Part shown: in pieces, positions 38,976-56,533 of the stretch
How positions within the stretch are numbered: position 1 is the first letter of the stretch
How the letters are laid out: every line of letters starts with the position of its first letter
NCBI RefSeq assembly: GCF_053078305.1
Contig: NZ_CP166879.1
Strand: one strand, 5' to 3'
Length of the DNA: 64,000 bases
The notes under the pieces: model-generated
Told to the model about the DNA's origin: nothing
Database searches by the model: none
What the model saw: only the letters and a program-made list of their open reading frames with translations
Program-made: the position numbers and the translations under genes

Positions 38976-40244
38976 GTGAACAGAATATTATCTTTCTGTT
39001 TTCTTTTCTCTGTCCACAACGTGTTCGCTTCTCCACTGCCGGCCCTCCTGAGGGATGCTCTCATTCATGATCCATCAGTGATGGAGGCAAGGGCAGAAGC
39101 CACCTCTGCCCGTTCCCGTGTGGAGCAGGCTCGTTCAGCACACTGGCCGGTCGTCACAGCAACAGGCAGTAAACTCCTTTCCCAGAGTCACCGCTACGAC
39201 TATGACTACGACTCTGAAGATATTTTGCCCGGTATCCGCGGTGAAATGAATCTGTTTGCTTCGGGAGCTATTGAGGCGGATGTCAGCCGGAGTGAGTCGG
39301 AAGCCGAGTATTACCGTTATAAAGTTGATGAGGCTGGCGAGGAAACAATTCGCTCCTTTGTTTCATTATATCTTGATGCGCTAAGGGAAAAGCAATCCAT
39401 TGAGGTACTTGAACAGAGTCTCTCCCGGCATAACGCAATTCTTAATGATCTTAACACCATCAGTATTCACGACACCGGGCGGGAGTCTGAGTTTGTTCAG
39501 GCCGAAGCCCGCAGGCTGATGGTCCGGCAGCAGATAAATACCCGCACCCGAGTGCTCAAAACCACGCTGGGAAAACTTTCGACCTGGACCACAAATCCGG
39601 TAACCGAAGCCGATCTTGAAAATCCTTTTTCCCGGATGACAGAGTCCAGATTGTTAACTGATTTTACGCAGACGCCTCAGAAAGGGAATCCGTCGTGGCT
39701 TGCCAGTCAGGCTGATGTAGAGAGTAAAAAAGCGGCGCTGAAAGCGCAGGAGCTTGCCCGGTATCCCCGGGTGGATTTAACGGGATCAGTGACCCGGGAT
39801 GACAGGCAGATAGGTGTCAGTCTGTCCTGGGACCTGTTCAACCGTAATGCCAGTTATGGTGTCAGTGAAAAGGCCGCGCAGATAGCTGCAGCTACCGGAC
39901 GACTGGACTCTGTTGCCCGAATGATTGATGAAACCGGACGATTATCGCTGATAACGGTCAGACAAAGTCGGATGGAAATGGAAACGCTGAGACGTCAGGA
40001 GCAGGCCTCTGCCAGAGTTGTGGACTTTTATCGTCTTCAGTTCAGGGTGGCAAGAAAGACACTGATTGAATTACTGAATGCAGAAAGCGAACTGTACAGT
40101 GTCGGGCTTTCCCGGGTTCAGACGGAGGATCAGATGCTCCACGGAATGCTGGATTATCTGTATTCCCAGGGAATGCTCCTGAAATGGAGCGGAGTGAATC
40201 TTTCTGGTGCAGAAGAAAAAGTAACAGGGCAGAAGGACAGATAA
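38976..40244 (+). CDS. TolC-family outer-membrane protein of a type I secretion system (TosC-like)
   Basis: 422 aa with signal peptide; GTG start 5 nt after GGAGG; first gene of an OMP-ABC-MFP-substrate operon. Confidence 0.85.
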   Translation: MNRILSFCFLFSVHNVFASPLPALLRDALIHDPSVMEARAEATSARSRVEQARSAHWPVVTATGSKLLSQSHRYDYDYDSEDILPGIRGEMNLFASGAIEADVSRSESEAEYYRYKVDEAGEETIRSFVSLYLDALREKQSIEVLEQSLSRHNAILNDLNTISIHDTGRESEFVQAEARRLMVRQQINTRTRVLKTTLGKLSTWTTNPVTEADLENPFSRMTESRLLTDFTQTPQKGNPSWLASQADVESKKAALKAQELARYPRVDLTGSVTRDDRQIGVSLSWDLFNRNASYGVSEKAAQIAAATGRLDSVARMIDETGRLSLITVRQSRMEMETLRRQEQASARVVDFYRLQFRVARKTLIELLNAESELYSVGLSRVQTEDQMLHGMLDYLYSQGMLLKWSGVNLSGAEEKVTGQKDR

Positions 40245-40248
40245 ATAA

Positions 40249-42396
40249 GTGAAGAGTATTTTTGAAGGATTATCACAGGTAACGGCATTACTGGGTACAC
40301 CTGTATCTGCTGAGACGCTGGCTGCCGGTACAGTCCGGACAGATGTCTCCGGGATTGATTTTCGTTCTGTTGGCGAGTTTCTTCGCAGTGAAGGGTTTGA
40401 TAATCATCTTTCCCGGCGGGCTCCGGAAGATATTCCTTCACTTGCGGTTCCTGTGCTTCTTTTACTGAATGCACAGGAAGCCATTGTGGTGGTGCGTATT
40501 GAGGGTGCCGGCCTGGCCCGGCAGTATCATGTACTCCAGCCCGGGGGACTCCGTAAGACACTTTCTCACGATGAATTAATGGCTGTTTATTCAGGTTACT
40601 GCTGGTTTGTTCAGCCACAGGCAACACAGGATCGCCGTTCGGAACTGCCGGAGTATGACATGACCGGGGCATGGTTCTGGCGGGTACTGTGGCGGTTCAG
40701 GCCATATTACGGACAGGTCATTCTTGCGAGTTTTATCATTAACTTTCTTGCGCTGGTCAGTTCCCTGTATGTCATGAACGTTTATGACCGGGTCATACCC
40801 AATCGCTCCTGGGAAACGTTATGGATGCTGAGTATCGGGGTGATTGCAGCCATTCTGTTTGAGTGTGCTGCAAAGTTAATCCGGAGCTATCTGACGGATA
40901 TTGCGGGTAAGAAGGCAGACCTGATTATCAGCTCAGCACTGTTAAGGCGGGTGATGGCAGTGAAAATGTCGGACAGGCCGGCGTCTTCCGGTTCATACGC
41001 CAGCAATTTGCGGGAATATGAGTCTGTCAGGGAGTTTATGACCAGCGCCACGCTGCTGGCTTTTGTGGATTTGCCGTTTATCCTGCTTTTCATCGGTGTC
41101 ATCGGGCTTGTGGGGGGCTGGCTTGCTGTTGTTCCTCTTACACTGGTTCCGCTGGTGATTCTGGCAGGAATATTACTGCAGCGACCGCTTTCGCGTCATA
41201 TTAATGCCTCCATGCGGGAATCATCGCAGCGCCAGGGATTACTTGTGGAGGCACTGGACGGAATAGAAACCCTGAAGCTGAATAATGCAGTTAACTGGGT
41301 CCAGCGCCGCTGGGATGGATATACAGCCAGTGTCGCCCGCTCGTCCATACGGGTAAAAAATACCAGTAATGTCATAATCTGCTTTTCCACAGCAGTTCAG
41401 CAACTGAATACTGTTCTGCTGGTCATTCTGGGGACGTACCTTATTCACAGTGATGACCCACATAACCGAATCACCATGGGGGCACTGATTGCCGCAGTTA
41501 TTCTTTCCGGTCGTGCGCTGGCACCGCTTGGTCAGATAGCATCACTGGCCACCCGTTTTCAGCAGGCCCGCCTGGCCATGCAGGGGGTGAATGACATTGT
41601 CCGCCGTCCGGTGGAGCGGGAAAGTCAGACACATTATCTGACAGTGAAGGATATCCAGGGAGAGTTTCGTTTCAGTGATGTCTCCTTTTCTTATAAGCCC
41701 GGATTACCCGACGCATTGTGCGGTCTGTCGCTCTGTATCCGGCCCGGAGAGCGGGTGGGTATTATTGGCTCAATAGGTTGTGGTAAATCGACGCTGCTGA
41801 AAATGATGGTGGGGCTGTACCGTCAGAACAGGGGACAAATTACTCTTGACGGGGTTGCGATGCAGCAACTGGACCCCTGTTTTGTCCGGGATAAAGTGTT
41901 TCTTCTGGAACAGAATCCCCGGCTTTTTCTGGGAACTCTGCGTGAAAATCTGCAGCTTTCGCGTCTGCCGGGAAGCCTGTCGGATGTGGATATGATTAAT
42001 GCAGCCGGACGTTTCGGGTTTGACCGTTTTATCCGGCATCATCCCCGCGGACTTGATATGCAGACAGGGGAAGGCGGTCAGGGGCTGTCAGGAGGACAGA
42101 GGCAGATGGTTGCCCTGACGAGAATGGTACTGGGGTCTCCCCGGGTGGTACTGCTTGATGAGCCCACGACAGGTCTGGACCTGCAGACTGAGTCTGTTGT
42201 TCTGAAAGGTCTGAGCCACTGGAGCCGGGGACGCACAATGGTGGTGGTGACACATCGTCTGCAGGTTCTGAATATTGTTGACCGTATTGTCGTGATGAAT
42301 GAAGGGCGGGTAATGATGGACGGTCCCCGTGATGAAATACTGAAAAGACTGTCAGGGAAACAGCAGAGTGAAGAGAGCAGACCGGCAGCTTCCTGA
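40249..42396 (+). CDS. T1SS ABC transporter permease/ATPase with N-terminal C39-like domain (HlyB/TosB-like)
   Basis: 715 aa; N-terminal ~130-aa extra domain, TMD, ABC ATPase with Walker A GSIGCGKST, signature LSGGQRQ, Walker B LLDEPT. Confidence 0.9.
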   Translation: MKSIFEGLSQVTALLGTPVSAETLAAGTVRTDVSGIDFRSVGEFLRSEGFDNHLSRRAPEDIPSLAVPVLLLLNAQEAIVVVRIEGAGLARQYHVLQPGGLRKTLSHDELMAVYSGYCWFVQPQATQDRRSELPEYDMTGAWFWRVLWRFRPYYGQVILASFIINFLALVSSLYVMNVYDRVIPNRSWETLWMLSIGVIAAILFECAAKLIRSYLTDIAGKKADLIISSALLRRVMAVKMSDRPASSGSYASNLREYESVREFMTSATLLAFVDLPFILLFIGVIGLVGGWLAVVPLTLVPLVILAGILLQRPLSRHINASMRESSQRQGLLVEALDGIETLKLNNAVNWVQRRWDGYTASVARSSIRVKNTSNVIICFSTAVQQLNTVLLVILGTYLIHSDDPHNRITMGALIAAVILSGRALAPLGQIASLATRFQQARLAMQGVNDIVRRPVERESQTHYLTVKDIQGEFRFSDVSFSYKPGLPDALCGLSLCIRPGERVGIIGSIGCGKSTLLKMMVGLYRQNRGQITLDGVAMQQLDPCFVRDKVFLLEQNPRLFLGTLRENLQLSRLPGSLSDVDMINAAGRFGFDRFIRHHPRGLDMQTGEGGQGLSGGQRQMVALTRMVLGSPRVVLLDEPTTGLDLQTESVVLKGLSHWSRGRTMVVVTHRLQVLNIVDRIVVMNEGRVMMDGPRDEILKRLSGKQQSEESRPAAS

Positions 42397-55894: not shown

Positions 55895-56017
55895 AAAGCC
55901 GGTCTGATGAAGGCTGTTGCGACGGGAATTTCTGTGCATGCTGTGTCACGGGCATCCCGGTGCTCCGGATAATTAATGTTATGTGGTCAGGCGTGATAAA
56001 TTTCATGTGGAACGGGT

Positions 56018-56533
56018 ATGCGTTTTATTTGTGATAACAGTTATTTTCTGGAGGGAGTGAAGGAGTATATTAATCCCGGTAAATTCATTATCAGCGGCAT
56101 GCAGACAGATAATGTGGTGATAATATCTTCTTCCCGGATATCTGAAATTGTCGGCTTTCTGTATAAGAATAATATAAGTGATACGAACACCCTTTATTTT
56201 TCTTCTCCGGAAGCGCTCCGTTTTCTCTGGGGAGTGGTTGACAGTCCGGTTTATGATATCAGACATCTTACTGAGCGATGTTCAGTAAACGATATCAGTC
56301 ATCTGTACCGCGCATTCATGTCGGTGGAGAAGCTGACCCTGTCAGGCCGGCAGGTAAATGTACTGATGATGCTGCTTTATGGCAGTAACGGAACAGAGGG
56401 GGCACGATATCTTGGCATGTCAGAGAAAACATTCTCCACTCATAAGCAGAATCTGATAAAGAGGTTACGGGTACATAATGAAGTTGAGTTGTTGTACAAG
56501 GGGATGCTTCTGGTCAGAAAAGGGAGGTTGTGA
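56018..56533 (+). CDS. LuxR-family HTH regulator (TosF-like by position)
   Basis: C-terminal LuxR-type HTH (LSGRQVNVLMMLLYGSNGTEGARYLGMSEKTFSTHKQNLIKRLRV). Confidence 0.65.
   Translation: MRFICDNSYFLEGVKEYINPGKFIISGMQTDNVVIISSSRISEIVGFLYKNNISDTNTLYFSSPEALRFLWGVVDSPVYDIRHLTERCSVNDISHLYRAFMSVEKLTLSGRQVNVLMMLLYGSNGTEGARYLGMSEKTFSTHKQNLIKRLRVHNEVELLYKGMLLVRKGRL

Follow-up and report, generated by a model that had tools for sequence, protein, structure and literature searches.

A probable mosaic of a tosR-less tosCBDA-like block and an autotransporter module of Eib/Saa-like type carrying TosE/TosF-family regulators in an Escherichia coli genomic island

In Escherichia coli CFT073, the products of tosC, tosB, and tosD export the repeat adhesin TosA (PMC5956150), whose gene is followed immediately by tosE and tosF. 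TosA is a marker and candidate vaccine antigen for uropathogenic E. coli, and the tos operon serves as a model for cross-talk between adhesin production and motility. A locus of similar outline lies between positions 38976 and 56533 of a 64,000-nt stretch (the window) of an E. coli genomic island, given as one strand of contig NZ_CP166879.1 in assembly GCF_053078305.1. The initial annotation likened it to tosCBDA-tosEF, with two YadA-like autotransporter genes and an insertion sequence (IS) of the IS66 family between a giant adhesin gene and two LuxR-type regulator genes. The question raised by this locus is whether it is the CFT073-type operon, parted by insertions, or an assembly of a different kind.

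We consider it probable, at about 80%, that the locus is a mosaic of a tosR-less tosCBDA block, an Eib/Saa-like autotransporter module with TosE/TosF-family regulators, and one IS insertion. The first module would extend from about 37749 to 48881, comprising an IS110 remnant, an AT-rich leader, and an allele of the tos type I secretion system (T1SS) that ends at a terminator-like hairpin. The second (49228-56533) would comprise a Saa-like gene, an Eib/Cla-like gene, a 68-residue open reading frame (ORF), and the genes of two small, atypical NarL/FixJ-type regulators. All genes from 38976 to 56533 are on the plus strand with intact coding regions, and ten coding regions are full length and align end to end with intact homologues. 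The parts are individually known or annotated; their combination is a rare natural variant, and our literature search found no paper describing such an architecture as a tos variant.

The secretion and adhesin block

The first three genes of the locus encode a TosC-like outer-membrane protein of the TolC family, termed 'OEP' (38976-40244), a TosB-like T1SS permease/ATPase of the ATP-binding cassette (ABC) type (40249-42396), and a TosD-like periplasmic adaptor, or membrane fusion protein (MFP), of the HlyD family (42441-43703, or from 42456, the start annotated in homologues, which gives 415 residues). The ABC protein scored 891 bits against the LssB-type family TIGR03375 (cut-off 693) and the MFP 322 bits against TIGR01843 (cut-off 209). 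The TolC-like protein, whose N terminus resembles a signal peptide, scored 99 bits against Pfam OEP (cut-off 22; E-value 3e-28) and 107 bits against TIGR01844, under the cut-off of 225 for that family. TIGR01844 aside, the ABC, MFP, and TolC-like components of a T1SS are thus encoded together and pass curated family cut-offs. The TolC-like, ABC, and MFP proteins are, respectively, 91, 95, and 98% identical in amino acid sequence to TosC, TosB, and TosD of CFT073 over full length and in the same collinear order, and their genes are approximately 90% identical to those of CFT073 across 4655 bp.

Directly after the tosD-like gene lies the gene for an adhesin of 1614 residues (43988-48832). The protein is 72% identical to TosA (1610 residues) over its full length, with identity falling from 92% at the N terminus to about 60% near the C terminus. 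The two share the same repeat organization and identical last residues, and the gene represents a divergent allele of tosA. The adhesin contains Ig-like repeats matching Pfam Big_13, followed toward the C terminus by degenerate RTX-like motifs, namely, three isolated copies of GGxGxD (at residues 1219, 1347, and 1481; TosA has two) and degenerate GxGDD motifs, and Pfam HemolysinCabind gave no match in the protein. Positions 44477 to 46788 of the gene hold 2.31 perfect in-frame copies of a 1002-nt (334-residue) unit, 100% identical to one another. These repeats were located by shift comparison, the period limit of 500 in Tandem Repeats Finder causing that program to miss them. Three more copies of the unit are found in the adhesin gene of strain Z1323MEC0001, and homologous adhesins span 749 to 3625 residues, their length being highly variable between strains. 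Each ORF named in the initial annotation, in the order TolC-like protein, HlyB-like ABC protein, HlyD-like MFP, and giant adhesin, is therefore present in its place and intact. By homology with CFT073, the ABC, MFP, and TolC-like proteins would export the TosA-allele adhesin to the cell surface.

Nineteen nt past the adhesin stop codon, a hairpin with a 10-bp G+C-rich stem is followed by TTTT (48851-48881). The hairpin has a folding energy of -21.7 kcal/mol and a z-score of -5.5, and none of 200 shuffled sequences folded as well. Nucleotide homology to the CFT073 operon is restricted to positions 39051 to 48879, that is, from approximately the start of tosC to 47 nt past the adhesin stop codon, and the hairpin falls within the last bases still homologous. 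A 396-nt AT-rich spacer then precedes the first YadA-like gene. Hairpin and spacer together suggest, as features of sequence, that the two modules would be transcribed separately.

The opposite end of the block also differs from the CFT073 operon. The leader preceding the TolC-like gene (38345-38975, plus strand) is approximately 630 bp long with about 37% G+C and has no similarity to the tosR/tos promoter region of CFT073. A tblastn search of the whole window with CFT073 TosR returned a best E-value of 2.7. The 1 kb upstream holds a sole ORF of at least 60 residues (38504-38698, minus strand), and neither it nor the smaller upstream ORFs had a Pfam match. A PapB-family tosR directly before tosC, one of the features that define tos, was thus not found in the window, as the initial annotation had anticipated.

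Left of the leader, positions 37749 to 38344 comprise the edge of the variant block and a remnant of an IS110-family element. Sequence common to two homologous loci of the subAB type, designated L001 and L008, begins at 37749 (91-94% identity). The segment from 37786 to 38344 is 76 to 78% identical to ISEc20 of strain IBS28, and the homologous position carries an annotated incomplete IS110 transposase in relative loci L001, L004, L008, and L009. Beyond the edge, the plus strand carries at 37383-37699, inside a fused 192-residue ORF (37342-37920), a second, 317-bp copy of an internal 5' part of YadA-like gene 1. This copy is identical at 313 of 317 bases to the original at 49269-49585, 11,886 bp away, so that the direct repeat brackets the whole block of IS110 remnant, T1SS genes, and adhesin gene. 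The same YadA-gene fragment occurs in Z1323MEC0001, SMBL, STEC639, and IBS28. The repeat could be a trace of the event that put the T1SS block in place, and homologous recombination between its copies would permit deletion of the block.

IS debris is plentiful to the left of the locus. A second IS66-family transposase gene, truncated to 398 residues, lies at 31180-32376, and fragments of IS66 tnpA and tnpB would be located at approximately 35.6 to 36.8 kb, if the annotated counterpart of this region in Z1323MEC0001 is taken as a guide.

The autotransporter and regulator module and its IS66 element

YadA-like gene 1 (49228-50970) encodes a trimeric autotransporter of 580 residues, and YadA-like gene 2 (53756-55021) an Eib-like trimeric autotransporter of 421 residues. 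Both proteins have the YadA-type anchor, stalk, and head of type Vc trimeric autotransporters. YadA_anchor was above its cut-off of 22.7 bits in both (34.6 in the first and 60.3 in the second), and both match the YadA anchor structure 2LME. YadA_stalk, with a cut-off of 28.4 bits, scored 36.4 in the first protein and, below the cut-off, 20.8 in the second. YadA_head, with a cut-off of 25 bits, scored 42.4 in the second protein and 25.0, just at the cut-off, in the first. From these family features it follows that both predicted autotransporters would export themselves by the type Vc route.

The C-terminal portion of YadA-like protein 1 (residues 339-580, about 240 residues) is 42% identical to Saa, an adhesin of E. 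coli producing Shiga toxin (STEC). Over 97% of its length, the protein shares 39% identity with a homologue from Proteus mirabilis, and its counterpart in STEC639 is 99.5% identical. YadA-like protein 2 matches the EibD head structure 2XQH with an E-value of 7e-44. Over 91% of its length it shares 52% identity with EibD, and its identity to EibC and EibE is 49%. Its head and stalk are homologous to those of the Eib proteins, while the N-terminal domain of approximately 100 residues found in Eib is missing, and the alignment has small deletions in the stalk region. The published numbers of the Fc-binding residues of EibE (D378 and Y388) do not agree with the precursor sequence. Two adhesin lineages, Cla and Yal, were recently defined in STEC negative for the enterocyte effacement locus (LEE) (bioRxiv 10.64898/2025.12.25.695649). 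Cla adhesins are Eib-like (~50% similarity), have no N-terminal domain but a saddle domain, and mediate chain-like adherence without binding IgG-Fc, and Yal adhesins are Saa-like (bioRxiv 10.64898/2025.12.25.695649). Matched by description rather than by sequence, YadA-like genes 2 and 1 probably belong to the Cla and Yal lineages, respectively. Among the sequences most similar to our locus are the JNEC-KY genomes from that study.

Between YadA-like gene 2 and the first regulator gene is an acidic 68-residue ORF (55149-55355) that was absent from the initial annotation. It is 100% identical in strain JNEC-KY202 (locus L006) and 91% identical in locus L005, is annotated as WP_000935977 in several genomes, and always precedes regulator 1 in this locus type. 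The ORF has no match in Pfam or NCBIfam.

The two LuxR-type genes that close the module encode regulator 1 (55418-55894; 158 residues) and regulator 2 (56018-56533; 171 residues). They pair one-to-one with TosE and TosF in the same order, with no cross-matches, regulator 1 being 37% identical to TosE and regulator 2 41.5% identical to TosF over full length. Regulator 1 is also 43.6% identical, end to end, to ORF-156 of the prophages P-EibD and P-EibC, and TosE and ORF-156 are 32% identical to each other. A further feature of tos, tosE and tosF directly behind tosA, is thus replaced in the window by homologues of 37 and 41.5% identity located 6.6 kb downstream. The comparison with the Tos proteins that the initial annotation had called for therefore gave a divided answer, with high similarity across TosCBDA and low similarity for TosE and TosF.

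Regulator 2 scored 39.7 bits against Pfam GerE (cut-off 23.5), and regulator 1 fell just under that cut-off at 21.8 bits. The structural model of regulator 1 (pLDDT 82.6) has two parts, a short alpha/beta domain resembling a receiver and, behind it, a LuxR-type helix-turn-helix of four helices. Foldseek matched this model best to EvgA, RcsB, and LiaR, with probability 1.0, E-values of about 1e-4, and TM scores of 0.43 to 0.47. Both proteins thus carry at the C terminus the helix-turn-helix of the LuxR/FixJ (NarL) type, regulator 2 by its GerE score and regulator 1 by the matches of its model. The family of regulator 1 has an invariant Asp (D51) where strand 3 ends. The receiver-like domain is short (~95 residues) and shows no evident acidic pair behind strand 1, and there is no kinase gene nearby.

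A profile search of 1.84 billion representatives returned approximately five full-length clusters of the TosE/ORF-156 family at 50% identity. One of these clusters sits behind a calcium-binding protein of the T1SS type, with HemolysinCabind matches, in a related island (L019/L020). Genes of the ORF-156 type are found directly behind YadA_anchor genes at the tail-fibre ends of prophages. Suppression of motility is reported for both TosE and TosF (PMC5956150, PMC7545054). By analogy, the regulators encoded in the window would be expressed together with the adhesin genes that precede them and would couple adhesin production to the repression of motility or to other genes for surface structures.

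AutA/AutR of avian pathogenic E. coli was considered as a candidate identity for the regulator pair and rejected; AutA/AutR belong to the UpaB cluster, which is another locus.

The IS66-family element, similar to ISEc23, is an intact copy of 2534 bp (51177-53710). Its limits were set by comparison with the 99%-identical, IS-free locus of Z1323MEC0001 and by direct reading of the ends. The terminal inverted repeats are approximately 25 nt long (GTAAGCG...CGCTTAC), and the 8-bp target duplication CGTGATTG is present at 51169-51176 and 53711-53718. The element carries tnpA (51264-51689), tnpB (51686-52036), and tnpC (52067-53680), which match Pfam HTH_Tnp_1, TnpB_IS66, and DDE_Tnp_IS66; genes, termini, and duplication are those of the IS66 family.

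Examination of its position revealed that the element occupies a 245-bp spacer between the two YadA-like genes, rather than lying directly before the LuxR-type regulators as first proposed. Its right end is 45 nt before the ATG of YadA-like gene 2 and 1.7 kb before the first LuxR gene. Relative loci L004, L002, and L010 carry the site without the element, and the left junction is shared by none of 5426 complete E. coli genomes, which makes the insertion specific to this strain or lineage. The single intact copy appears to have been inserted recently. It would cut the Eib-like gene, and possibly the 68-residue ORF and the regulators, off from an upstream promoter and would push any native promoter of the Eib-like gene 2.5 kb away, in which case their expression would depend on read-through from the element or on internal promoters. 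The insertion may therefore be polar on the Eib-like gene and possibly on the 68-residue ORF and regulators. Inspection of the right end for a hybrid outward promoter found TTGACG in the terminal repeat, with no -10 element at usable spacing.

Conservation of the layout and competing readings

The set of 5426 complete E. coli genomes was also used to estimate prevalence. Sequence similar to tosBD, at 90% nucleotide identity or higher, occurs in 313 genomes. At least 95% identity to the window was found in 58, and 257 had matches in the 90 to 95% band that includes CFT073. The CFT073-type tosR is present in 221 genomes and the CFT073-type tosEF in 238, while the tosR-less upstream region of the window occurs in 35 and its complete regulator pair in 30. 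The hosts of this locus type, some 30 to 35 unrelated genomes from humans, ruminants, and birds, are mostly STEC and animal strains.

A common frame runs from the IS110 remnant through the genes for the TolC-like protein, the ABC protein, the MFP, a variable giant adhesin, in places a further variable gene, the Eib-like protein, the 68-residue ORF, and regulators 1 and 2 to YqaE/Pmp3. The frame was found in Z1323MEC0001, IBS28, STEC639, SMBL, SCU-171, and 2015C-3121. Z1323MEC0001 (99% identity), IBS28, and STEC639 have the IS-free layout with both YadA-like genes; SCU-171 and 2015C-3121 have one YadA-like gene, and these two and SMBL carry other adhesin cargo, which in some relative loci is another adhesin type. 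Past YqaE, the window, IBS28, SCU-171, and 2015C-3121 share an MscS gene and a gene similar to those for 3'-phosphoadenosine 5'-phosphosulfate (PAPS) reductase, and Z1323MEC0001 and STEC639 diverge. The subtilase cytotoxin genes subAB lie just left of the IS110 remnant in SCU-171 and 2015C-3121, an arrangement that corresponds to the 'OEP locus' of STEC (PMC3852854), and the layout of the window is of this type. A scan of the window found no tRNA gene; the relatives are located near nanR/nanS (2015C-3121 and SCU-171) or near dcuA/aspA (STEC639 and, with tRNA-Phe, JNEC-KY202).

This conserved context differs from that of CFT073, and the CFT073-type setting implied by the initial annotation was accordingly not borne out. 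The YadA-like genes and the IS66 element do stand between adhesin and LuxR genes, as ORFs and domain matches confirm. The YadA-like genes did not enter a CFT073-type operon by insertion; both are fixed in the IS-free relatives Z1323MEC0001, IBS28, and STEC639, and solely the IS66 copy is strain-specific. The proposed parallel to tosCBDA-tosEF holds in that TosCBDA homologues are collinear at 91, 95, 98, and 72% identity and the regulators are homologous in order, and fails in that the regulators are 37 and 41.5% identical and both regulatory ends differ.

Two further loci show other combinations of the parts. In JNEC-KY202 (L006, NZ_AP045178 4819328-4860768), the TosA-like gene is separated by a complete capsule (kps) cluster, similar to group 2, from a 3' fragment of the gene for the Eib-like protein. 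There kps takes the place of autotransporter gene 1 and of most of gene 2, and the 68-residue ORF and both regulators are retained. In AR_0372, a decayed Eib-like gene, the 68-residue ORF, and regulator 1 are kept together with no tosCBDA there. Approximately 370 other genomes match the query partially in sequence, most over the same part as AR_0372.

Several points weigh against the mosaic of two modules as we have drawn it. The tosRCBDAEF genes of CFT073 are treated as one operon despite a homologous hairpin after tosA, so that the hairpin is no proof of a transcriptional stop at 48881. Consensus scans of positions 37900 to 57000 gave 33 promoter-like sites versus 25 expected from shuffled sequence and 22 terminator-like sites versus 15; being near the shuffled expectation, they were not used to define transcription units. 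The T1SS block might be silent, given the lack of tosR and the IS110 remnant upstream. The motility phenotype of TosE and TosF is the sole basis on which a function is assigned to the TosE/ORF-156 family. The autotransporter genes, moreover, may have disappeared from the CFT073 type or been acquired by the window type.

The alternative that survives best, although we regard it as doubtful, is that the modules are unrelated neighbours, with regulators serving the autotransporter genes only, in the manner of an eib-orf156 cassette, and with the likeness to tos a by-product of island shuffling. ORF-156 homologues do occur behind eib-type genes in prophages that have no neighbouring T1SS, the unit of Eib-like gene, 68-residue ORF, and regulator 1 persists without tosCBDA, and the hairpin and AT-rich spacer part the modules. 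Members of the same regulator family, however, are also found directly behind tosA in CFT073 and behind the HemolysinCabind protein of L019/L020, and a link to T1SS adhesins thus recurs. In addition, the T1SS, a variable adhesin, a YadA-like gene, and the regulators occur together in all of the approximately eight loci inspected.

We think it unlikely that the locus is a decaying, silent remnant that lost tosR, became flanked by IS debris, acquired a new IS66 copy, and has no useful expression. Consistent with such decay are the IS110 remnant, the IS66 fragments, and the truncated YadA fragment upstream; the AT-rich leader, which is typical of DNA silenced by H-NS, as CFT073 tos is by H-NS and Lrp (PMC5956150); and the pseudogene state of the Eib-like gene in loci of the AR_0372 type. 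Decay is difficult to reconcile with ten full-length coding regions, with 1002-nt repeats that are in frame and 100% identical, and with the retention of the locus type in some 30 to 35 unrelated complete genomes.

Least probable by our estimate, and largely refuted by the homology breakpoints, is descent from an orthologous tosRCBDAEF operon from which tosR was lost and in which insertion of the YadA-like genes and the IS pushed tosEF downstream. Gene order, TosCBDA identities of 72 to 98%, and one-to-one regulator matches in the same order favour it. Against it, the regulators at 37 and 41.5% beside TosCBD at 91 to 98% are not CFT073 tosEF alleles displaced by insertions, nucleotide homology ends 47 nt past the adhesin gene, each IS-free relative examined has retained the YadA-like genes, regulator 1 is nearer to prophage ORF-156 than to TosE, and the Eib-like gene, 68-residue ORF, and regulator 1 stand together in AR_0372 without tosCBDA.

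The mosaic reading leaves room for a broader proposal, which we advance tentatively. The adhesin partners of the TosE/ORF-156 family are tosA, eibC/D/E, Cla-like autotransporters, and a calcium-binding T1SS substrate. TosE, ORF-156, and regulator 1 might then form one tiny family, essentially restricted to E. coli and always located immediately 3' of a surface-adhesin gene. Its members could act as a portable 'adhesin-tail' regulator cassette, brought along by each new adhesin to switch off motility or competing surface structures. The tosEF genes of uropathogenic E. coli would in that case derive from an autotransporter (eib-type) module and not from the T1SS operon, and the 317-bp repeats would be the splice mark of the T1SS block in front of that module.

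The presence of a tosR-less allele in circulation among STEC and animal strains, with a 72%-identical adhesin, another promoter region, and other regulators, has practical consequences. Screens for 'tosA' or 'tos' by PCR or BLAST may yield mixed results, and TosR-based regulation is not to be assumed beyond the CFT073 type. Relatives of TosE and TosF tied to Eib/Cla-type adhesins offer a second system in which to study these regulators, and the strain-specific IS66 copy, set beside 99%-identical IS-free strains, is a natural test of whether the Eib-like gene and the regulators depend on upstream transcription. The general picture of how such loci work is unchanged.

Island surroundings and comparison with known systems

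Genes similar to ibrA, encoding PAPS reductase and DUF3440 domains, flank the locus at 33414-34837 and 57848-59131. The upstream copy is seemingly truncated at its 5' end and has an IbrB-like ORF behind it; behind the downstream copy lies a NERD/UvrD helicase gene (59320-61107). An IbrA/IbrB-type pair recurs beside the other TosE-family gene in L019/L020. Sandt and colleagues are said to have reported in 2002 that IbrAB activates eib genes in ECOR-9, which would fit the Eib-like gene found here. Elsewhere in the window, on the minus strand at 10438-13566, is a gene for a classical autotransporter of the Ag43/AIDA type (1042 residues) with ESPR, AIDA, autochaperone, and beta-domain regions. The surface adhesin genes of the island thus number at least four and span three secretion types. 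At the start of the window, in a part of higher G+C content, lies a GspL-like gene of type II secretion (114-1545).

Of the systems previously described, AutA/AutR (PMC4844996) resemble the regulators of the window in being an adjacent LuxR/GerE pair beside an adhesin gene, upaB, which they are reported to co-regulate. They differ in belonging to the UpaB cluster (APECO1-1682/1683), where the adhesin is a classical and not a trimeric autotransporter, and the proteins, compared here by description, seem larger. The Cla/Yal preprint (bioRxiv 10.64898/2025.12.25.695649), whose lineages the two autotransporters fit by description, does not mention the T1SS or the regulators.

The 'OEP locus' was described as a marker for subAB2-2 in LEE-negative STEC (Funk et al. 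2013, PMC3852854) and has the same TolC-like 'OEP' gene and T1SS as the window; primer subA-L of that study matches the reverse complement of positions 39051 to 39068. The OEP locus adjoins subAB2-2, whereas the window has no subAB and instead carries the YadA-gene fragment left of the IS110 remnant. That study covers the OEP/T1SS genes as a marker, and the adhesin, autotransporters, and regulators are not described there.

The P-Eib prophages of ECOR-9 (AF151674, AF151675, and AF151676) have eibC, eibD, or eibE followed by a hairpin and then by a gene of about 156 codons of the TosE/ORF-156 family, an arrangement comparable to the second module of the window. The adhesins of these eib-orf156 units are 49 to 52% identical to YadA-like protein 2. 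The units are prophage-borne, whereas our locus is on a chromosomal island. In the window, moreover, the adhesin has no Eib N-terminal domain, the 68-residue ORF stands between adhesin and regulator genes, and a TosF-like second regulator is found where the ECOR-9 prophages have ORF-60.

A further close system is tosRCBDAEF of CFT073 (PAI-aspV; NC_004431 335703-346938), which shares with the window the order of TolC-like, ABC, MFP, and repeat adhesin genes, the homologous hairpin after the adhesin gene, and two small LuxR-type genes in the same order at the 3' end. CFT073 has tosR, in contrast to the window with its unrelated upstream region. The regulator genes begin 120 bp past the adhesin gene in CFT073, compared with 6.6 kb in the window (4.0 kb without the IS), where two autotransporter genes and the 68-residue ORF come before them. 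The CFT073 type is found in B2 uropathogens, whereas the type represented by the window is found mostly in STEC and animal strains.

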